Assembly: GCF_044324785.1 (NCBI RefSeq)
Contig: NZ_CP172127.1
Source: Escherichia coli
GTDB lineage: Bacteria; Pseudomonadota; Gammaproteobacteria; Enterobacterales; Enterobacteriaceae
Strand: one strand, 5' to 3'
Length of the DNA: 64,000 bases
Made by a program: the position numbers and the translations under genes. Positions within the stretch are counted from its first letter, which is position 1. Each line of letters starts with the position of its first letter. Below the pieces are notes generated by a model. It searched no databases. It was not told the DNA's origin and saw only the letters and a list, made by a program, of their open reading frames with translations. This document shows, one piece after another, positions 1 through 15,061 of the stretch.

Positions 1-1322
<1,322 letters not shown>

Positions 1323-1488
1323 TTAAAAGATAACATGACAATGCATGATGAATATAACAACATATGATGTTATGTAATGTGGAGGAAGATCACAAAATTT
1401 CGCACAGGATCGCGCTGTGGCTAATGGATGTAGTTATCAAATTGAATTTAAAGTGAAAATATTTTTACGGGCGGGGGCAAGAAGGACA

Positions 1489-1525
1489 TAGAAACAAATA
1501 CGCCCTCGGAAAATCCAGAGGGCGT
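1489..1525 (-). terminator. putative intrinsic terminator downstream of yhfL
   Basis: Inverted repeat acgccctc / gagggcgt (1500-1507 / 1518-1525); on the minus-strand transcript it is followed by a U-rich run. Confidence 0.4.
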
Positions 1526-1565
1526 CGGGCAATTAAACCGGTGTTAGCCGATTTCTGTCAGAGAC

Positions 1566-1733
1566 TTACTGTGCAGTAGGACCGCAACCGCCAATGATTT
1601 TAGAAATAGAAATTGCCGGGTGCAGCAGGTAGTCGTAAGAGCAGTTCTTATCACGGTTTTCAATATGACCAGTACATGCAGTTAACGTAGCCAGTACCGC
1701 ACCTACCAGTGCAACTTTAATAAATTTGTTCAT
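1566..1733 (-). CDS. yhfL: small lipoprotein, 55 aa
   Basis: Manual translation MNKFIKVALVGAVLATLTACTGH...GGCGPTAQ; signal peptide with lipobox LTAC; below the 60-aa cutoff of the ORF track. Confidence 0.7.
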   Translation of the reverse strand: MNKFIKVALVGAVLATLTACTGHIENRDKNCSYDYLLHPAISISKIIGGCGPTAQ

Positions 1734-1979
1734 TTACATTCCCTATGTATTATATATTGATTAATATTCATTGTTTATATGAATATAAGCAGACTGCTCA
1801 TTAAGAACGATACAGGAATATTTAATTGGCGTCAGTGAGTGAATGGCTTAATTTTGTAAGTCGCTGTAACGGTGAATATAACCCATTAGCAGATAATATT
1901 TATTAAGGGGTTATGTTTTATTTGCTGAATATATAAAAAGAGTCATTAAGAAGGCCAGAATTCTCTGGCCCGGGTTACA

Positions 1980-3353
1980 TTAATGGTTGGAGAACCAGTT
2001 CAGTTTATCGCGCAGGCCAACAACCCGACCAATAATAATTAGCGATGGACTGTTCATTTGCTGCGCTAGTTCGCCCAGCTGTGTGAGCGTACCGTCAATC
2101 ACGCGCTGCGTGACTGCTGTTCCGTTTTCGACAATTGCCACCGGCATTTCGCCAGGCATACCGTGTTCAATCAGCTTTTGCTGAATGGTCGCGGCCTGAT
2201 TCAGCCCCATATAGAACACCAGCGTCTGTTTTTCTGCCGCCAGGTTTTCCCAGTCCAGCTCGCCACCGGTTTTTAAGTGTCCGGTAATTAAGCGTACGCT
2301 CTGGGCATAATCGCGATGCGTGAGCGGAATACCCGAATAGGCAGAGCAACCAGAAGCTGCGGTAATACCCGGAACCACCGAGAACGGAATACCCGCGTTG
2401 CACAGTGTTTCCAGCTCTTCGCCACCACGGCCAAAAATAAACGGATCGCCACCTTTCAGCCGCACCACGCGTTTGCCTTTTTGCGCTTCCCGCAGCAGGA
2501 TCTGGTTTATCTCTTCCTGCGGTACGCAGTGGTATCCCGCGCGTTTGCCGACGAAAACGCGATCAGCATCGCGGCGTACCAGATTCATAATATCGTCAGA
2601 AACTAGACGGTCGTAGACCACCACATCTGCCTGCTGAATTTGTTGCAGACCTTTCAGTGTCAGCAGCCCGGCATCGCCCGGACCTGCGCCAACCAGCACC
2701 ACTTCACCGCGATGGTCGAGCGGTTCGTTGATTAACTGTTCGGTCGTTTCAGTAATGGCTTTCTGATCGTTGTTTGCCAGCGACTGCGCCAGACGGTCAT
2801 TAACGAACAGTTTTTCCCAGAAACGGCGACGTTCACCCATTGTTGCGAACTGTTGTTTCACTCGACCGCGTAATTGCCCGGCGTATTTCGCTACCTGGCC
2901 CAGATGCAACGGCAGCAGTGATTCAAGTTTTTCACGCAACAGGCGTGCCAGAACCGGAGAGGTGCCGCCAGAGGAGACCGCGACCATGAGCGGTGAGCGG
3001 TCAATAATCGACGGCATAATAAAGCTGGCGGCTTTCGGCGCATCGACCACGTTACAGAAGATGCGACGAGCTTCAGCGGCTTCACTGACGCGCTGGTTAA
3101 GCGCGTCATCATCCGTCGCAGCAATCGCCAGCCAGCAGGTGTCGAGAAGGCTTTCATCAAATGGCCCTTCGACGAGGGTTAACATGCCTGCATCTGCCCA
3201 TGCGGTGAACTGCGGAATAAACGCTAATGCATTCACCGTTAAGCGAGCGCCTGCGTCTAACAGTAACCTTGCTTTGCGTTCCGCGACATCACCACCGCCG
3301 ACAATCAGACAGTCGCGATCGCGTAATTGGCAAAATATAGGCAAATGATCCAC
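1980..3353 (-). CDS. cysG: siroheme synthase (uroporphyrinogen-III methyltransferase / precorrin-2 dehydrogenase / ferrochelatase)
   Basis: 457 aa ORF, N-term [31 protein letters not shown]; length and sequence match CysG. Confidence 0.95.
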
Positions 3354-3371
3354 GTAAAAACCCCTTAGTAA

Positions 3372-4178
3372 TTAACCGGCAGCTGTTTCAGTTTGATTAA
3401 ATTTGTCCGCAACCGGACGATTCGCTTTCGGCGTAGCATACCAATAACCCAATCCCATGAATACGGCACCTGATAAAGTATTACCCAGCGTCACCCACAG
3501 CAGGTTATGACCAATACCCGCCAGCGTGTAGGCTTCGCTGTGGTTGCCAAACCAGGAGAGGGCGAACAGCGTCATGTTAGCGATGGAGTGCTCGTAGCCG
3601 GACGCGATAAATGCCAGCAGACACCACCAGATAGCGATAAATTTCGCCGCCCCTTCAGTGCGCAGCGCCATCCAGATAGCCAGGCAAACCAGCCAGTTAC
3701 ACAATGCACCTTTGAAGAACAGTACCATTGCCGGTGCAGTGGTTTTAGCCAGCGCGACGGAGTGAACGATGCTGGTATCTACCGGCAGCAGGCTACCGCC
3801 ACCCCAGCTATAGAGCATGGCAACGAAGACGGAACCGACCAGGTTACCCAGCCAGGTTTGCGGCAGGATTGCCCACATTTGCCCGTGGCTGATAGTGCCT
3901 GCTTTCACCCCAAAGGTGAGGAACATGGTGTGTCCGGTGAACAGTTCAGAACCAGCAATAATGACCAGCGTTAAGGCGATACCAAAGGTCGCACCCATCA
4001 CCAGAGGACGTACGGACGGATCGAGCAAATTACCGAGCGTGAAAATCAGGATGATCCCAAGACCCACATACGCCCCCGCCATGGCGGAGCTGACCCAGAA
4101 GCCGAGCGGGTTATTTGCCGACAGGCGTGCAATGCGCGCAGCGTTAGCCGCACACTTATTAATAGTGTCTGTAAACAT
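3372..4178 (-). CDS. nirC: nitrite transporter (FNT family)
   Basis: 268 aa ORF, multi-TM; position between nirD and cysG. Confidence 0.93.
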   Translation of the reverse strand: MFTDTINKCAANAARIARLSANNPLGFWVSSAMAGAYVGLGIILIFTLGNLLDPSVRPLVMGATFGIALTLVIIAGSELFTGHTMFLTFGVKAGTISHGQMWAILPQTWLGNLVGSVFVAMLYSWGGGSLLPVDTSIVHSVALAKTTAPAMVLFFKGALCNWLVCLAIWMALRTEGAAKFIAIWWCLLAFIASGYEHSIANMTLFALSWFGNHSEAYTLAGIGHNLLWVTLGNTLSGAVFMGLGYWYATPKANRPVADKFNQTETAAG

Positions 4179-4270
4179 TTGATTATCCTTAAAAAAATAA
4201 AAACAAAAAAATAAAACAAAAAGTTTAAAAAATGTCCTGCAATATACCGAAGGTTATTACAGGACCATGC

Positions 4271-4294
4271 AAAAAGGGGAGGCATTGCGCCTCC
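4271..4294 (-). terminator. hairpin plus U-run immediately downstream of nirD (possible intra-operon attenuator)
   Basis: ggaggc-attgc-gcctcc inverted repeat at 4278-4294, followed on the transcript by UUUUU (plus 4271-4275) and a long U-rich tract before nirC. Confidence 0.35.
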
Positions 4295-4304
4295 TGTTAA
4301 AACA

Positions 4305-4631
4305 TTAACCGCGCAGCTGTACCACGCCGTCTTTCACTCGTGCTTCGTAGTGCTTGACGGAAAACTGTTCGTCTTCCATGCACAAGCCGTCGCTTAAGCG
4401 AAAACGCTGTTTTTTCAGCGGGCTGGCGACCCACAGCTCGCCCTGATGTTCCGCAATCAGCCCGCGTGACAGCACGCTGGACTCGAAGAACGGATCGATG
4501 TTGCTGATCGCAAACACCTGGTCGCTGTGATATGGGCGGAAAATCGCGACCTGCTCGTCACCTAACAGCGCGCAGACGCCGGTTTCAGGCAGGATGTCAT
4601 CGATTTTGCAGATGTCTTTCCACTGGCTCAT
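4305..4631 (-). CDS. nirD: nitrite reductase small subunit (Rieske-like)
   Basis: 108 aa ORF MSQWKDICKIDDILPETG; 4-nt overlap with nirB stop. Confidence 0.95.
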   Translation of the reverse strand: MSQWKDICKIDDILPETGVCALLGDEQVAIFRPYHSDQVFAISNIDPFFESSVLSRGLIAEHQGELWVASPLKKQRFRLSDGLCMEDEQFSVKHYEARVKDGVVQLRG

Positions 4632-7171
4632 GCGTTGTCCTCCACCAGAGTTACCGGGATACGTTCATACGGCGTTGCCGGACGGTGCTGTTCGCGCTCT
4701 GGCACCATCTGCACGTTCGGGTCACGCTTGTCGCTGTTGATGAAGTGTTTGAAGCGAGTCTGCGCAGACGGCGTATTGACCGTTTCAGTCCACTCACACA
4801 CTACCGCTTCACGCAGGCGCGCCATCTCTTCTTCCAGATGAGCGTTCAGCCCCAGTTTGTCGTCAATGATCACCGCTTTCAGGTAATCGATGCCGCCTTC
4901 GAGGTTTTCTAACCACGGTGCGGTACGCGTCAGTTTGTCGGCAGTACGGATGTAGAACATCATGAAGCGGTCGAGATATTTGATCAGCGTTTCGCGATCG
5001 ATATCCGCCGCCAGCAGATCCGCATGACGCGGTTTCATGCCGCCGTTACCGCAAACATACAGGTTCCAGCCTTTTTCAGTGGCGATAATACCCACGTCTT
5101 TACCCTGAGCTTCTGAACATTCACGGGTACAGCCGGAGACACCGAACTTCATTTTGTGCGGCGTACGGATGCCTTTGTAGCGGTTTTCCAGTTCCACGCC
5201 GAGGCCCACGCTATCGCCCACGCCGTAGCGGCACCAGGTGCTACCCACGCAGGTTTTCGCCATACGCAGTGCTTTCGCATAGGCATGACCGGTTTCGAAG
5301 CCGGCTTCAATCAGCTGACGCCAGATCTCCGGCAGATCGTCTTTCTGTGCGCCAAACATCGCCAGGCGCTGGGAGCCGGTGATTTTGGTGTAGAGATTAA
5401 ATTCACGCGCGATACGACCCACCGCCATCAGCCCTTCCGGGGTGATTTCACCGCCCGGAGAACGCGGGATCACCGAGTAGGTGCCGTCTTTCTGGATGTT
5501 AGCGAGGAAGTTATCGTTAGAATCCTGCAGCGGAGTATGTTCCGGCTTCAGAATGTATTCGTTCCAGCAGGAGGCCAGCAGCGAACCGACGGTCGGTTTA
5601 CAAACTTCACAACCGTAGCCTTTGCCGTGTTTCGCCAGCAGTTCTTCGAAGGTTTTAATGCCTTCAACGCGGATTAAATGGAACAGTTCCTGACGCGAAT
5701 AAGCAAAGTGTTCGCACAGGTTGTTGTTAACTTCGATGCCCTGTTTCGCCAGTTCCGCGTTCAGTACCTGAGTGACCAGCGGGATACAGCCACCGCAGCC
5801 AGTACCCGCTTTGGTTTCAGCTTTCAGCGCCGCAACGGTGTGGCAGCCTTTGTTGATAGCAGCAATCAGGTCGCCTTTGGTGACGTCGAAGCAGGAGCAG
5901 ATTTGCGCGCTGTCCGGCAGTTTATCAACACCGATAGACGGCTTACCGCTACCAGAGTGCGCCGGCAGAATCAGAGAATCCGGGTTTTCCGGCAGCTCGA
6001 TAGCGTTCAGCACCAGTTGCAGCAGGTTACCGTAGTCGCTGGTATCGCCCACCAGTACCGCACCGAGCAGGGTTTTGTTGTCTTCGCTGACAATCAGGCG
6101 TTTGTAGATCTCTTTGCTTTCGTCGAGGTAAACGTAGCTACGTGCGCCAGGCGTGCGACCGTGCGCATCACCAATACCGCCTACGTCTACGCCCAGCAGT
6201 TTCAGCTTGGCGCTAAGGTCAGCACCTTCAAAGGCGTTTTCGCTGCCAAGAATATGGTCAACGGCGACCTGCGCCATTTTGTAGCCTGGTGCTACCAGAC
6301 CAAATACACGGTTGTTCCAGCTTGCGCATTCACCGATGGCGTAGATATCCGGATCGGAAGTCTGGCAGGAATCATTTATGACGATACCCCCACGCGGAGC
6401 AACGTCCAGACCACACTGGGTTGCCAGCTTATCGCGCGGACGGATACCGGTAGAGAAGACGATAAAGTCGACTTCCAGTTCGCTGCCGTCGGCAAAACGC
6501 ATGGTTTTACGCGCTTCAACACCTTCCTGCACAATCTCAAGGGTGTTTTTGCTGGTGTGAACGCGCACGCCCATACTTTCGATTTTGCGACGCAGCTGCT
6601 CGCCGCCCATCTGATCAAGCTGTTCCGCCATCAGCATAGGGGCAAATTCGATAACGTGGGTTTCAATACCTAAGTTTTTCAGCGCGCCAGCGGCTTCCAG
6701 ACCTAACAGGCCGCCGCCAACAACGGCACCACGTTTGCTGCGACGGGCGCAGGATTCAATGGCGTTGAGGTCTTCAATGGTGCGGTAGACAAAGCAGTCC
6801 TGGGTATCAGAACCTTTAATTGGCGGGATCCACGGGTAGGAACCGGTCGCCATGATCAGCTTGTCATAAAAAACGGTGCGCCCGGCGCTGGAGTGAATCA
6901 CCTTCTCCTGACGGTTGATGGTGATAGCGCGTTCGCCGACCAGAACTTTGATACCGTGTTTCTCGTAGAAGCCTTCGCGCACCAGCGACAGCTCTTCGGC
7001 GGTGTGGTGAGAGAAGTAAGACGAGAGGTGTACGCGGTCATAAGCGATGCGCGGTTCTTCACAGAAAACGGTAATATCAAAGTTGGCCGCATCAGATTTA
7101 TCAAGAAGATCTTCGATAAAGCGATGGCCGACCATACCGTTACCGATAATTGCGAGTCTGACTTTGCTCAT
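4628..7171 (-). CDS. nirB: NADH-dependent nitrite reductase large subunit
   Basis: 847 aa ORF, N-term MSKVRLAIIGNGMVGHRF (FAD/NAD Rossmann); length matches NirB. Confidence 0.97.
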   Translation of the reverse strand: MSKVRLAIIGNGMVGHRFIEDLLDKSDAANFDITVFCEEPRIAYDRVHLSSYFSHHTAEELSLVREGFYEKHGIKVLVGERAITINRQEKVIHSSAGRTVFYDKLIMATGSYPWIPPIKGSDTQDCFVYRTIEDLNAIESCARRSKRGAVVGGGLLGLEAAGALKNLGIETHVIEFAPMLMAEQLDQMGGEQLRRKIESMGVRVHTSKNTLEIVQEGVEARKTMRFADGSELEVDFIVFSTGIRPRDKLATQCGLDVAPRGGIVINDSCQTSDPDIYAIGECASWNNRVFGLVAPGYKMAQVAVDHILGSENAFEGADLSAKLKLLGVDVGGIGDAHGRTPGARSYVYLDESKEIYKRLIVSEDNKTLLGAVLVGDTSDYGNLLQLVLNAIELPENPDSLILPAHSGSGKPSIGVDKLPDSAQICSCFDVTKGDLIAAINKGCHTVAALKAETKAGTGCGGCIPLVTQVLNAELAKQGIEVNNNLCEHFAYSRQELFHLIRVEGIKTFEELLAKHGKGYGCEVCKPTVGSLLASCWNEYILKPEHTPLQDSNDNFLANIQKDGTYSVIPRSPGGEITPEGLMAVGRIAREFNLYTKITGSQRLAMFGAQKDDLPEIWRQLIEAGFETGHAYAKALRMAKTCVGSTWCRYGVGDSVGLGVELENRYKGIRTPHKMKFGVSGCTRECSEAQGKDVGIIATEKGWNLYVCGNGGMKPRHADLLAADIDRETLIKYLDRFMMFYIRTADKLTRTAPWLENLEGGIDYLKAVIIDDKLGLNAHLEEEMARLREAVVCEWTETVNTPSAQTRFKHFINSDKRDPNVQMVPEREQHRPATPYERIPVTLVEDNA

Positions 7172-7229
7172 TTTTGCCTCGATTTCTTTTCTATTACCGC
7201 CTACCTTAACGATTCAGCAACCCCGCTTA

Positions 7230-7243
7230 TTGATGTAAATCAA
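7230..7243 (-). promoter_or_regulatory. FNR binding site of the nirB promoter (about -41.5)
   Basis: Perfect TTGAT-N4-ATCAA palindrome ttgatgtaaatcaa centred about 65 bp upstream of the nirB ATG. Confidence 0.8.
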
Positions 7244-7256
7244 ATTCACCTTTATA

Positions 7257-7272
7257 TACTCCTTAAGGGGTA
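7257..7272 (-). promoter_or_regulatory. NarL/NarP 7-2-7 heptamer pair of the nirB promoter (about -69.5)
   Basis: TACTCCT-ta-AGGGGTA inverted heptamers (TACYYMT consensus) centred 28 bp upstream of the FNR site centre. Confidence 0.75.
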
Positions 7273-7432
7273 TATTGCTGATTTGTATAAATTTTCTTAA
7301 GTCACGGAATTGTCTGACATTTCATGTTTGTGCAAAAAACAGACAAAATGAACGGGTTTATAGAAATAGATGTACGTAGCAGGGTAAGAGAGGAAAAGGC
7401 CGGACGACGATAGCGCCGCCCGGCATGAGCAA

Positions 7433-8614
7433 TTAATGAGAGGTCAGGGTGTTATGCTGACGGTGACGGCTGACGAAACCTAACAGGAAGCACATCACAA
7501 AGACGACAGCGTACAGACCGTTTGCTGTAAGCAGTGCCGCCTGCGGACCGCTATGTTCAACAATCGGGCCGGTAACCACAAAGGTCAACATAGTACCGAT
7601 GGTCCCGCAGGTCAGGACAAAGTTAACCAGTTTTGGCGACGGTACTTTGGTCTGCTGTGAACCCAGGGTGATGATGGTGGTATAGATCGCGCTGGAGAAG
7701 AAGCCCAGGGCGAGAATTGACCACGCCATATGTGCCGGTGTTCCGGTGTTAAAGACGTACATCAGAATCGCAGCCAGACCAGCCAGTACGGTCAGGATAC
7801 GTTGCAAATCAAAGAAGCGAAGAATAAAGCTGAACGCCCACATGCCGACCATATATGACATCCAGAAGTTACTCACCAGCGTGCCCGCGTCGTTCAGGCT
7901 CATGCCCAGGCCTTTGGCATACTCCGGCACCCAGGAGATAAAACCTAACTGACCGAGGATGTAGCACAGCGCCGCAACAGAGAGAAACAGCACGCCGATC
8001 CCCCATTTTTCTTTCACTACCGGAGCATCCGTTTTTGGCGCATGTTTGCCCAGCGCCGGGAACTCACAACCGAAGGTCAGAATAAAAATAGCGACATACA
8101 CCAGCCCGATGCAGGCATAAACCCAGTACCACTCAATGCTGCGCGCCAGTAGAAACGCGGCGATCATTGGGAAAATCATCCCAGCCATACTGAAGAAGGA
8201 GTCGGTAAATAACAGGCGGGAACCGCGCTGACGCCCTTCATACATTTGTGTTATCAGGAATGTACCAATCGACATGGTGATGCCGCTGACCACCCCGAGA
8301 ATGAACATCGCCGCCGAGAACAGCGCCAGGCTGTGGCTGAACATCAAACCGGCAACCGCCAGCACCATCAGGAGAAAGCCAAAACGTAACTGCGTTTTCA
8401 ACGGGACGATTTCCATCAGCCAGGCGTTGAGGAAGATAGAGATTAAAATGCCGGCGTTGAGGAAGGTGAAGGTATTACTCATACTGGAAACAGGCAGATT
8501 GAAATAATCGGCGATATTTCCCATCACCATCCCGGTGACAATAACCAACGCACCGGTCAGTGCGTAGGAGAGAAAGCTAATCCATGTGAGCTTGATGCGA
8601 TTGCTGTTAGTCAT
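7433..8614 (-). CDS. tsgA: MFS-family membrane protein TsgA
   Basis: 393 aa [24 protein letters not shown], 12-TM pattern. Confidence 0.9.
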
Positions 8615-8875
8615 GATTGGCCTGCGTTCAAAAATAAAATGGCATAGCGGGATATGCCGCGAGCGGGCGATTTTAGGTGATTTTGTGATCTGTTTAAATG
8701 TTTTATTGCAATCGGTTGCTAAATTGCATTTTAAGAGGTGATTTTGATCGCAGAATAAAAAGTGATCGTCAGGTTACATATATTTCAGATACGTAAAATT
8801 AGGTAAAGGGATGGCCTTGTTCTTGAAGGCTATTTAGAATCTCTTCACTTGCTTTTTTTCTGCTCTGTTTGTTAA

Positions 8876-9457
<582 letters not shown>

Positions 9458-9465
9458 TGATTTCT

Positions 9466-9494
9466 CGCGCGGGCAATCTTGCCCGCGCTTCTGC
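9466..9494 (+). terminator. putative ppiA terminator hairpin
   Basis: cgcgcgggc-aatctt-gcccgcgc stem-loop 9 bp after the ppiA stop; weak T-run. Confidence 0.45.
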
Positions 9495-9561
9495 TCTCCC
9501 GGCGTAACCCGGATTTGCCGCTTATACTTGTGGCAAATGGACACGTTCAGGGAGGCATCAA

Positions 9562-9729
9562 GTGAAGAAACTCACCGATAAGCAAAAGTCCCGTCTCTGG
9601 GAACTTCAGCGTAATCGTAATTTCCAGGCCAGTCGCCGTCTTGAAGGCGTCGAGATGCCTTTAGTCACTCTTACTGCCGCAGAGGCTTTAGCGCGCCTTG
9701 AAGAGCTGAGGAGGCACTATGAGCGATAA
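9562..9729 (+). CDS. yhfG: small protein YhfG (antitoxin-like partner of Fic), 55 aa, GTG start
   Basis: Manual translation [55 protein letters not shown]; overlaps the fic start by 11 nt. Confidence 0.7.
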
Positions 9730-10321
9730 ATTCGGCGAAGGGCGCGATCCGTATCTTTATCCTGGCCTTGATATCATGCGTAACCGGCTGAACATCCGCC
9801 AGCAGCAGCGGCTGGAACAGGCCGCTTACGAAATGACGGCGCTGCGTGCTGCGACCATTGAGCTTGGTCCGCTGGTGCGCGGTTTACCGCATTTGCGCAC
9901 TATCCATCGCCAGCTGTATCAGGATATTTTCGACTGGGCAGGGCAACTGCGTGAAGTTGATATTTATCAGGGCGATACGCCGTTCTGCCACTTTGCCTAT
10001 ATCGAAAAAGAGGGCAATGCCCTGATGCAGGATCTGGAGGAAGAAGGTTATCTGGTTGGCCTGGATAAAGCGAAGTTCGTCGAGCGGCTGGCACATTACT
10101 ATTGTGAAATCAACGTGCTGCATCCCTTCCGTGTGGGAAGCGGACTGGCACAGCGGATCTTCTTCGAGCAGCTGGCGATTCATGCGGGCTACCAACTGAG
10201 CTGGCAGGGTATCGAAAAAGAGGCCTGGAATCAGGCAAATCAGAGTGGGGCAATGGGGGATCTCACCGCGCTGCAGATGATATTTAGCAAAGTGGTAAGC
10301 GAAGCCGGGGAATCTGAGTAA
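9719..10321 (+). CDS. fic: Fic-family protein (adenylyltransferase)
   Basis: 200 aa ORF; Fic motif [12 protein letters not shown] present. Confidence 0.93.
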
Positions 10322-10352
10322 AATAGCGCGGTTCTTTCGTACCGGAGCCGCC

Positions 10353-10916
10353 ATGATCCTGCTTATAGATAACTACGATTCTTTTACCTGGAACCTCTAC
10401 CAGTACTTTTGTGAACTGGGGGCGGATGTGCTGGTTAAGCGCAACGATGCGTTGACGCTGGCGGATATCGACGCCCTTAAACCACAAAAAATTGTCATCT
10501 CACCCGGACCCTGTACGCCAGATGAAGCCGGGATCTCCCTTGACGTTATTCGCCACTATGCCGGGTGCTTGCCGATTCTTGGCGTTTGCCTCGGTCATCA
10601 GGCAATGGCGCAGGCATTTGGCGGTAAAGTTGTGCGCGCCGCAAAGGTCATGCACGGCAAAACCTCGCCGATTACACATAACGGTGAGGGCGTATTTCGG
10701 GGGCTGGCAAATCCACTTACCGTGACACGCTACCATTCGCTGGTGGTGGAACCTGACTCATTACCAGCGTGCTTTGAAGTGACGGCCTGGAGCGAAACCC
10801 GCGAGATTATGGGGATTCGCCATCGCCAGTGGGATCTGGAAGGTGTGCAGTTCCACCCGGAAAGTATTCTCAGCGAACAAGGACATCAACTGCTGGCTAA
10901 TTTCCTGCATCGCTGA
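10353..10916 (+). CDS. pabA: aminodeoxychorismate synthase glutamine amidotransferase subunit
   Basis: 187 aa [22 protein letters not shown]; class-I GATase catalytic Cys in GVCLGHQ. Confidence 0.95.
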
Positions 10917-10986
10917 TTTCTGATTGCTATTAAGTGATTTTTTATGCATATTTTGTGATTGTAATTTCATGTTGGTTTATGCGTAA

Positions 10987-12225
<1,239 letters not shown>

Positions 12226-12287
12226 GACGCATCAGGCAAAAGATGTCGGATGCGGCGTGAACGCTGTATCCGATGGTTTAGCCTGCA
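12226..12287. repeat. REP/PU (BIME-like) element between argD and yhfK
   Basis: gacgcatcaggc ... tgtcggatgcggcgtgaacgctgtatccgatgg closely resembles the GCCGGATGCGGCGTGAACGCCTTATCCGGCCTAC palindromic unit. Confidence 0.7.
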
Positions 12288-14378
12288 TTACGCCTTCGAA
12301 TCCCGCAACTTGCGACTCAGCCAAATCCCGTGATGCGGTCGCTGACGCCATGCCATCGACGAAATGGTGTGCATGGTGTTCAGATGACCAATAACCCGCT
12401 GTAAATGCTGCTCCAGCGTACCTGCCGCGCCTTCGTGCGGCTGCATCTCCGGCGCATCCATGATATTGGCATCGCCGGAACTACCCGGTTCGTCATACTC
12501 CAGTCGCTGCTGACAACGCTGAATGGCGATTTCACAAGACTGTAAATACTCTTGTGCCAGTTCAGGTGGCAATGCCCGGTGTTCCCGCGCCAGCGTGGTC
12601 ATGGCATTAATATGCTCAACAATAAACTGGCTGTGCGTTACCCACAGTTTCATATCTGCCAGATAATGGCTGTTAAACGCCGGTTCCTGCATCGCCTGAT
12701 TCAATGAGTTATACAGAGTGTTATGCGCCTGATTTACCCGCATTCGCTGCCAGGCCAGTGGCGTAGGTTGCGGGTCCTCGCTCAGAATCAAGCGAATTGC
12801 TTCCTGATAGGCTTCTAAAGCGTCATGGGCGTTCTTACGCAATAACCCGCTCTGCCACTGCGGCCACAGCCAGACGGTACCACCGAAAGCAATTAAACAA
12901 CCAATAATGGTATCAATAAGACGTGGAAGGATGTACTGCTCACCGTTCAACCACAACAGTTGCAGGGTATACACTGCGGTAATGGTAAAACCGACCGTCG
13001 CCCAGCCGTAGTTTTTGCGCAATATCAGGTAGCTGGCGAGGGTGGTAATCAGCATCAACGTCAGGGTGTAACCTTCGGGAATTTTAAAGTGCAGGGCAAC
13101 GCCCGCAATGATTAACCCGACCACGGTTCCCACGGAGCGATTCACAATCCTCAGACGGGTTGCGCCATAGCCATTTTGCGTCACCAGCAATACCGTCATC
13201 AGGATCCAGTACGACTTCGGCAGATGCAGCGCGGTGCCCATCAGGCTGGCAACGCTTAACATCACACTGAGTCGTCCGGCATTGCGTAGCGCCGGAGACT
13301 TTAGTGACAGATAACTTTTCAGTGCCGGAAGTAACGGCATTCGCCGCTGTTTATCGGCCAGTAAGTCACGGGCATAGAGCGGTTTTTGGGTGCGCAGCAC
13401 GCGGGCGATGCGGCTGAAATGCCAATAGCAGAATTGCCCAACCGGATTATCCGGATGCTGGCGGGCGATTTTTTCCAGTGCGCCAATTTGCTTTTCCATC
13501 GTAAAACGCGTCGGCAGGCGATGGTAAAGAATGTCATCAGCCAGCACGCGCAGGCGAGCGGCGACGGTTTGCGCATTCCAGCGGATAACTTCTTCTGCAT
13601 GGCTACGCTCGACCAGCTTTTGCACCTCTTCCGGCTGATGCAAACTGACCGAAATATGTTCCTGCAAATCCAGCGCCTCCTGGAAAATACGCAGCATCCG
13701 CTTGTAATCGTTATTATTTTGCGCGGAAAGCATATGCATTTGCTGATAGCACTGGGTAATTAGATCGACCGCTTTTTGCTGGCGCACCAGCAGCGGCGGC
13801 AGCGCTTTTTCAGGGTCGGTGTGCTGGGTAAGCAGGCTGTATTTGGCTTCACAATAATCTGCCAGTTCACGGTACAGCAGACTTAGTGACTCGCGCAGCG
13901 GTTGTTCGCGCCAGATCCAGAACCAAAACCAGTTAAACAATCCGTACCAGAGAGTGCCCAACGCATAGATGAGCAACGGTTCCCAGACCGGCATGTATCC
14001 CGCCAGACTGAGGGTAAAAATGGCGGCGAGCAGCGATGCGGGAAGCAATTTTGCGTGCAATGGCCCCAGCTCAGCAGTGACGCCAAGTACCAGCGTTAGT
14101 CCAGTCAGCAAAAAGGGCAAGGGAACATCTTTTGCCAGTAACAGCTGTGTCAGCAAGCTACAGGTGGCAAACAGCGACGCACCAATGATTAAGCGTTTGA
14201 AAAAACGTTTATGAGGCGTATCAAGGCCCGCAATATTGCAACAGGCAGGAACGAGGGAGAAGAGCAGACCGAATCGTAATTCGCCAAGCATTAACCCAAT
14301 GGCCACGGGCAAACATAGCACCAGCGTTTGTCGCAGTGCATAGTTAATATCGGGGTGATAAATCAGTCTGCGCCACAT
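12288..14378 (-). CDS. yhfK: inner-membrane protein YhfK (FUSC-like)
   Basis: ORF track gives 700 aa from a TTG; the first ATG (14378-14376, MWRRLIYHP) gives 696 aa. Confidence 0.85.
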   Translation of the reverse strand: MWRRLIYHPDINYALRQTLVLCLPVAIGLMLGELRFGLLFSLVPACCNIAGLDTPHKRFFKRLIIGASLFATCSLLTQLLLAKDVPLPFLLTGLTLVLGVTAELGPLHAKLLPASLLAAIFTLSLAGYMPVWEPLLIYALGTLWYGLFNWFWFWIWREQPLRESLSLLYRELADYCEAKYSLLTQHTDPEKALPPLLVRQQKAVDLITQCYQQMHMLSAQNNNDYKRMLRIFQEALDLQEHISVSLHQPEEVQKLVERSHAEEVIRWNAQTVAARLRVLADDILYHRLPTRFTMEKQIGALEKIARQHPDNPVGQFCYWHFSRIARVLRTQKPLYARDLLADKQRRMPLLPALKSYLSLKSPALRNAGRLSVMLSVASLMGTALHLPKSYWILMTVLLVTQNGYGATRLRIVNRSVGTVVGLIIAGVALHFKIPEGYTLTLMLITTLASYLILRKNYGWATVGFTITAVYTLQLLWLNGEQYILPRLIDTIIGCLIAFGGTVWLWPQWQSGLLRKNAHDALEAYQEAIRLILSEDPQPTPLAWQRMRVNQAHNTLYNSLNQAMQEPAFNSHYLADMKLWVTHSQFIVEHINAMTTLAREHRALPPELAQEYLQSCEIAIQRCQQRLEYDEPGSSGDANIMDAPEMQPHEGAAGTLEQHLQRVIGHLNTMHTISSMAWRQRPHHGIWLSRKLRDSKA

Positions 14379-14382
14379 CGGG

Positions 14383-14416
14383 GGAAACAAAATGGCGCGC
14401 TACCAGGTAACGCGCC
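14383..14416 (-). terminator. crp intrinsic terminator
   Basis: ggcgcgctacc-a-ggtaacgcgcc hairpin 13 bp after the crp stop, followed on the transcript by UUUUGUUUCCC. Confidence 0.65.
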
Positions 14417-14428
14417 ACTCCGACGGGA

Positions 14429-15061
14429 TTAACGAGTGCCGTAAACGACGATGGTTTTACCGTGTGCGGAGATCAGGTTCTGATCTTCCAGCATCTTCAG
14501 AATGCGTCCCACGGTTTCACGAGAACAGCCAACAATCTGACCGATTTCCTGACGGGTAATTTTGATTTGCATACCGTCCGGGTGAGTCATAGCATCCGGT
14601 TGTTTTGCCAGGTTCAGCAGAGTCTGTGCAATGCGGCCCGTCACGTCGAGGAACGCCAGGTTGCCCACTTTCTCTGAAGTGACTTGCAGGCGACGCGCCA
14701 TCTGTGCAGACAGACGCATCAGAATGTCCGGGTTTACCTGAATCAATTGGCGAAATTTTTTGTACGAAATTTCAGCCACTTCACAGGCGGTTTTCGCACG
14801 TACCCATGCGCTACGTTCCTGGCCCTCTTCAAACAGGCCCAGTTCGCCAATAAAATCACCCTGATTCAGATAGGAGAGGATCATTTCTTTACCCTCTTCG
14901 TCTTTGATCAGCACTGCCACAGAGCCTTTAACGATGTAGTACAGCGTTTCCGCTTTTTCACCCTGGTGAATAAGCGTGCTCTTGGATGGGTACTTATGAA
15001 TGTGGCAATGAGACAAGAACCATTCGAGAGTCGGGTCTGTTTGCGGTTTGCCAAGCACCAT
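14429..15061 (-). CDS. crp: cAMP receptor protein (global regulator)
   Basis: 210 aa [53 protein letters not shown] with C-terminal HTH. Confidence 0.98.

Follow-up and report, generated by a model that had tools for sequence, protein, structure and literature searches.

The nirBDC-cysG promoter in an Escherichia coli genome segment: FNR and NarL/NarP sites, their conserved spacing and a variant base at -72

Does the tsgA-nirB intergenic region of this Escherichia coli sequence hold the nitrite reductase promoter that is known from strain K-12, and if so, is it the same promoter in every base? The region occupies positions 7172-7432 of the window, by which we mean the whole 64-kb stretch of DNA that was analysed. 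The nirB gene lies on the minus strand, so its promoter is read as the reverse complement. In K-12 this promoter, pnir or nirBp, is said to have been studied by Jayaraman in 1987-89, Tyson in 1993-94 and Browning in 2000-2008. We put the probability at roughly 95% that the region is the native E. coli nirBDC-cysG promoter, a class II FNR-dependent promoter of the operon that encodes the cytoplasmic NADH-dependent nitrite reductase. As a promoter it is already known. How clearly do its recognition sites stand out from the surrounding sequence? Is their arrangement kept in other species? By what mode would NarL and NarP act from their site? Here we take these questions in turn and then compare the region with K-12.

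The operon and its core promoter

In E. coli pnir drives nirBDC-cysG. The four genes follow the region on the minus strand, all of them full length and uninterrupted and with the lengths given in the annotation of strain 042:

4628-7171, minus strand: nirB, nitrite reductase large subunit, 847 aa, no internal stop; protein identical to that of strain 042
4305-4631, minus strand: nirD, 108 aa; identical to that of strain 042
3372-4178, minus strand: nirC, nitrite transporter, 268 aa; one residue different from strain 042
1980-3353, minus strand: cysG, siroheme synthase and last gene of the operon, 457 aa; two residues different from strain 042

A search with 351 bp around the nirB start, at the tsgA-nirB junction, found this junction in 5,425 of 5,426 complete E. 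coli genomes; strain 042 and several others are 100% identical to the window over this stretch. The nirB promoter region is absent from one complete E. coli genome. It was also seen on plasmid-labelled records, in three places in the junction search and in one in the searches with a 96-bp core. One further structure follows directly on the stop codon of tsgA, at a distance of about 200 bp upstream from the nirB start site:

7399-7424, minus strand: hairpin and T-run resembling an intrinsic terminator, with an 11-pair stem containing 9 G-C pairs, followed by CTTTTCC

Such a hairpin would protect pnir against read-through from tsgA.

Similarity to strain 042 is mosaic over positions 1-14951. The nirB gene and its promoter are nearly identical between the two, and 4-7% of bases differ from tsgA to pabA (7500-11000) and in part of cysG (1500-3000). 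Because the tsgA-pabA segment has about 98.5% identity with most E. coli (99.1% at best), strain 042 is the outlier there. We regard this pattern as ordinary recombinational mosaicism.

Upstream of nirB the following elements make up the core of the promoter:

7257-7272, minus strand: NarL/NarP 7-2-7 site, TACCCCT-TA-AGGAGTA in the nirB direction, centred at -69.5
7230-7243, minus strand: FNR site, TTGATTTACATCAA in the nirB direction, a perfect consensus in the class II position, centred at -41.5
7203-7208, minus strand: -10 hexamer TAAGGT, at -13 to -8, identical to K-12
7195, minus strand: putative transcription start (+1), 24 nt upstream of the nirB ATG (7171-7169); the base is A
7177-7180, minus strand: Shine-Dalgarno sequence GAGG, 5 nt before the ATG, conserved across species

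The FNR recognition sequence that a class II FNR-dependent promoter has to contain is present at 7230-7243, where the plus strand reads TTGATGTAAATCAA. The perfect form, TTGAT-N4-ATCAA, occurs once in the 64 kb against an expectation of 0.07, and was present in 7 of 100 shuffled sequences. With one mismatch allowed the count rises to four sites, against 2.3 expected. The plus strand at 7257-7272 reads TACTCCTTAAGGGGTA, and here two TACYYMT heptamers form an inverted repeat 2 bp apart. This is an exact match, running from 7272 to 7257, to the pattern TACYYMT-NN-AKRRGTA, which has no other match in the 64 kb (0.00 expected) and was found in none of the 100 shuffles. The centres of the two sites, 7236.5 for FNR and 7264.5 for NarL/NarP, are 28 bp apart. 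All three of these features had been picked out in the initial annotation, the perfect FNR site, the heptamer pair and the 28-bp spacing, and each is confirmed; the two sites are moreover unique in the window in their consensus form. That annotation was silent on nirB being on the minus strand. Because both sites are inverted repeats, the omission leaves its conclusion unchanged.

A transcription start at 7195 is suggested by three things taken together: the identity with K-12, a published start 23-24 nt from the ATG, and the convention that places a class II FNR site at -41.5. The K-12 nirB transcript is given as beginning 23-24 nt upstream of the ATG, with the -10 hexamer TAAGGT, in a secondary source that refers back to the original mapping (PMC4216584). 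The initial annotation used 7195 as its start coordinate, and this is the +1 position. The centres of the FNR and NarL/NarP sites fall at -41.5 and -69.5 because +1 is taken as 7195. On this numbering the NarL/NarP centre is 28 bp upstream of the FNR centre, and the FNR site has a properly spaced -10 element, as a class II promoter does, with the start transferred by identity with K-12.

A generic σ70 scan of positions 7100-7500 returned no consensus promoter. Could this count against a promoter here? We rejected that argument. A good -35 element is missing from class II activator-dependent promoters, and TAAGGT agrees with the consensus -10 at 3 of 6 positions. A blank σ70 scan is therefore what is expected of a promoter that depends on an activator and has such -35 and -10 elements.

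The window and K-12 MG1655 have the same sequence from -71 to the ATG, a stretch that takes in the FNR 14-mer, the proximal heptamer, TAAGGT, the leader and the Shine-Dalgarno sequence. Data obtained with K-12 bear on these same letters. The nirBDC-cysG operon is listed with FNR at -41.5 in Myers 2013 (PMC3688515). According to the supplements of that study, the identical 14-mer of K-12 nirB, in the -41.5 position, lies under an FNR ChIP-seq peak, an anaerobic-specific σ70 peak adjoins nirB, and nirBDC-cysG belongs to the FNR-activated class; the nirB 14-mer has the highest motif score of the table (PMC3688515). A column without a heading in supplementary file 12 of the same paper gives 0.03 for nirB, 0.10 for nirD and 0.17 for nirC in K-12 (PMC3688515), and these values are probably the ratios of expression in the fnr mutant to that in the wild type. 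NarL is placed at -69.5 in the K-12 nir promoter by Kompaniiets et al. 2024 (PMC10853779). The arrangement claimed for nirB at the outset, FNR at -41.5 with NarL/NarP at -69.5, is supported by these published positions together with the identity to K-12 from -71 to the ATG.

Conservation in the Enterobacterales

The arrangement was sought in a collection holding one genome per species, using the relaxed pattern TACNNNTNNANNNGTA-N13-TTGATNNNNATCAA. At least 120 loci fitted. A scan of this kind reports only sequences that fit the pattern and is silent on species that do not have the arrangement. In 92 of the matches listed, the FNR site is followed at 57-59 bp by a NirB-like start codon, the distance in the window being 58 bp. 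The layout of 7-2-7 site, 13 bp, FNR site, 57-59 bp and nirB ATG is consequently present in at least 92 species genomes from at least 25 named genera of the Enterobacterales. Genera among the matches listed include Citrobacter, Enterobacter, Klebsiella, Raoultella, Kluyvera, Kosakonia, Cedecea, Buttiauxella, Pantoea, Erwinia, Pectobacterium and Serratia; Salmonella is not among them. The other 28 of the matches listed are mostly in unrelated phyla and by a rough estimate are near chance level. About seven of these 28 are from Enterobacterales, and probably missed the nirB test through a locus that was cut short or a start that is more divergent.

From the matches listed, 88 distinct sequences were aligned in promoter register, the informative positions being those that the pattern left free. 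The heptamers are a small TACYYMT-like set, and 73 of the 88 sequences have TA between them. The -10 hexamer is TAAGGT in 75; the other 13, which have TATTGT or TATCGT, probably represent the Pantoea/Erwinia group. Conservation is strong in the block from about -25 to +1. Furthest upstream, the hexamer AAATCA at -89 to -84 (window 7279-7284, minus strand) is invariant in the 88 sequences and was not constrained by the pattern. Loci of the TATTGT/TATCGT minority keep the FNR/NarL spacing. In Pantoea/Erwinia loci NirB starts MSKH(N/S)VV, and the distance from the FNR site to the ATG is 57 bp in some.

Might the two motifs simply co-occur by chance and have no regulatory role? In favour of this is no more than the general caution that a match to a consensus does not by itself demonstrate a function. 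Against it stand the expected counts of 0.07 and 0.00 per 64 kb, together with a spacing and a distance to nirB that at least 92 species genomes share. For the identical sequence in K-12, the supplements of Myers 2013 (PMC3688515) document binding of FNR by ChIP-seq and dependence on fnr. On the expected counts, the spacing across species and the K-12 ChIP-seq data we rejected chance co-occurrence, to which we give a vanishingly small probability. The reading of the region as pnir is the one carried forward below.

IHF, Fis and the mode of NarL action

How would the two sites work together? At the K-12 promoter, NarL bound at -69.5 clashes with IHF at -88 and displaces it, and this relieves repression by Fis so that FNR can activate, as described in Kompaniiets et al. 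2024 and Myers 2013 (PMC10853779, PMC3688515). Sequences in the window resembling the binding sites of two further regulators were looked at in this light:

7271-7283, minus strand: IHF-like core AATCAGCAATATA, at -88 to -76, with one mismatch to WATCARNNNNTTR; the counterpart of IHF I, published at -88
7205-7218, minus strand: Cra (FruR)-like sequence GCTGAATCGTTAAG, overlapping the -10 element, with one mismatch to RSTGAAWCSNTHHW

AATCAGCAATATA and the NarL site overlap by two bases, at the end of the one and the beginning of the other. Matches of this quality are frequent: WATCARNNNNTTR with one mismatch is found 101 times in the window against 89 expected, which is chance frequency, and RSTGAAWCSNTHHW with one mismatch 14 times against 14.9 expected, also chance level. 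The block around the Cra-like GCTGAATCGTTAAG is strongly conserved across species, and Cra repression of nir was reportedly described by Tyson, Busby and Cole in 1997. Both matches are consistent with the literature and with conservation and are not independent evidence. The invariant AAATCA element falls on IHF I, the site published at -88, and its conservation fits the anti-repression model.

Under anaerobiosis, an FNR dimer would bind the perfect site at -41.5, overlapping the -35 region. The bound FNR would recruit RNA polymerase to the weak TAAGGT -10 element, and transcription would start about 24 nt before the nirB ATG. When nitrate or nitrite is present, phosphorylated NarL or NarP would bind the 7-2-7 site at -69.5. 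The main effect, going by published work on K-12, would be that NarL or NarP displaces IHF, whose site at -88 overlaps theirs, and so relieves the repression that IHF and Fis exert on FNR-dependent activation. For this strain we infer the start site, the protein binding and the anti-repression mechanism from the K-12 literature.

A different mode of action would make NarL and NarP at -69.5 conventional upstream co-activators that contact the C-terminal domain of the RNA polymerase alpha subunit directly. Such a contribution from -69.5 is physically plausible, since NarL contacts the alpha C-terminal domain at yeaR; at engineered ogt promoters NarL activates alone from -67.5, -44.5 and -77.5. 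In K-12, however, full FNR-dependent activity has reportedly been seen without NarL or NarP in ihf and fis mutants or when the upstream part of the promoter is deleted. The overlap of 2 bp between the IHF-like core and the NarL site, and the invariance of AAATCA in the 88 species sequences, likewise fit competition between the proteins. We therefore think direct co-activation improbable as the account of NarL/NarP action at this promoter, and favour anti-repression. The initial annotation called the promoter co-activated by nitrate and nitrite. The word is right for the outcome; the published mechanism is displacement of IHF and derepression from Fis.

Related promoters of E. coli show the same components in other arrangements. 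The NarL/NarP site of the nrfA promoter (pnrf) has its centre at -74.5, so that the spacing is 33 bp instead of 28, and transcription is repressed by high nitrate. Unlike pnir, pnrf belongs to a separate operon, which encodes the periplasmic nitrite reductase. It resembles pnir in being activated by FNR, with further induction by NarL/NarP, and in the suppression of its FNR-dependent transcription by two nucleoid-associated proteins, as described in PMC5434802; its FNR site is listed at -41.5, as in pnir, in Myers 2013 (PMC3688515). The yeaR and ogt promoters have the same 7-2-7 NarL recognition element as pnir. Unlike pnir they do not need FNR, and NarL at -43.5/-44.5 and -77.5 recruits RNA polymerase directly, whereas at pnir NarL at -69.5 is described as acting mainly by anti-repression (PMC10853779).

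Comparison with K-12 and the base at -72

Is the promoter then the same as that of K-12? The locus is, both lying between tsgA and nirB, and so are the FNR position at -41.5, the NarL/NarP position at -69.5 and the sequence from -71 to the ATG. A comparison with the published pnirB sequence had been proposed as a check. It succeeds over that stretch, and the match to the textbook promoter stops short of being letter for letter, with a C at -72 in place of the A of K-12. This is the sole difference in the core promoter. It lies at window position 7267 on the minus strand, in the promoter-distal heptamer, which is TACCCCT in the window and TACCCAT in K-12, both within TACYYMT. Eight more substitutions are found further upstream, at -123, -145, -157, -178, -186, -190, -219 and -224.

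Of 5,425 complete E. coli genomes, 3,761 match the core of the window from -95 to +1 (96 bp) exactly and 1,195 that of K-12; about 470 have neither. The C at -72 is the majority allele in E. coli, and the NarL site of the K-12 textbook promoter is a minority allele. Experiments on pnir have been done with the K-12 sequence, that is, with the minority allele -72A. A third form of the distal heptamer, TACCACT, is present in other Escherichia lineages. It was also seen in the species collection, in one genome under the label E. coli, and we rejected it as an E. coli allele, the TACCACT core having no exact match among the complete E. coli genomes.

Would the A/C difference at -72 change the affinity for NarL or NarP measurably, so that induction by nitrate and nitrite differs quantitatively from K-12? 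This would be a refinement of the main explanation and not a replacement for it. The base is the lone core difference from K-12 and lies inside the binding site. By sequence, the C makes the site more symmetric, its heptamers TACCCCT and TACTCCT differing at one position against two in K-12. Both alleles are common (3,761 against 1,195 of the 5,425 genomes), and the third form occurs in other Escherichia species. On the other hand, the consensus TACYYMT permits A and C alike at this position. Among the matches listed, TACCCAT is found in 22 species and TACCCCT in 7, which suggests that the position is tolerant. A measurable effect on affinity is on balance doubtful. We offer as a tentative idea that the -72 polymorphism, perhaps with the differences at -123 and -145, tunes the nitrate and nitrite induction of nitrite reductase among E. 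coli lineages. In K-12 we take IHF II to be at -115 and Fis I at -142, and window positions 7318 (-123) and 7340 (-145) differ from K-12 in that region. The differences at -123, -145, -157 and beyond may fall in or near the reported upstream sites for IHF and Fis.

In the neighbouring ppiA-tsgA intergenic region, two bases in the adjacent area are all that differs from K-12. Both are at the left half of a motif at window positions 8738-8751 on the minus strand, which is listed under the ppiA/tsgA FNR ChIP peak in Myers 2013 (PMC3688515). The motif is cGTGATCAAAATCAC in K-12, tGCGATCAAAATCAC in the window and TGTGATCAAAATCAC in the closest E. coli genome. To us it looks like a CRP site too. None of the 5,426 complete E. 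coli genomes gave an exact 96-bp match with the T-to-C change at 8750, which could be a private mutation that weakens the site or a sequencing error.

The region had been declared regulatorily intact when it was first annotated. For the DNA sites and the four reading frames this stands. For the regulation as a whole it says too much, since fnr, narXL and narQP lie outside the window; the regulators concerned, FNR, NarXL, NarQP, IHF and Fis, are all encoded elsewhere. What the window does carry is a normal nirBDC-cysG operon with a normal control region, which is of value for its annotation, and the promoter can serve as a positive control for the reading of motifs from raw sequence. To what is known of pnir we make three modest additions. 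The NarL site of K-12 is a minority allele, the spacing of the two sites and their distance to nirB are conserved in at least 25 genera of the Enterobacterales, and the IHF-like element is among the best conserved of the positions left unconstrained. If the tuning by -72 were true, the textbook account would be that of a minority allele, and most E. coli would respond to nitrate and nitrite somewhat differently from it.
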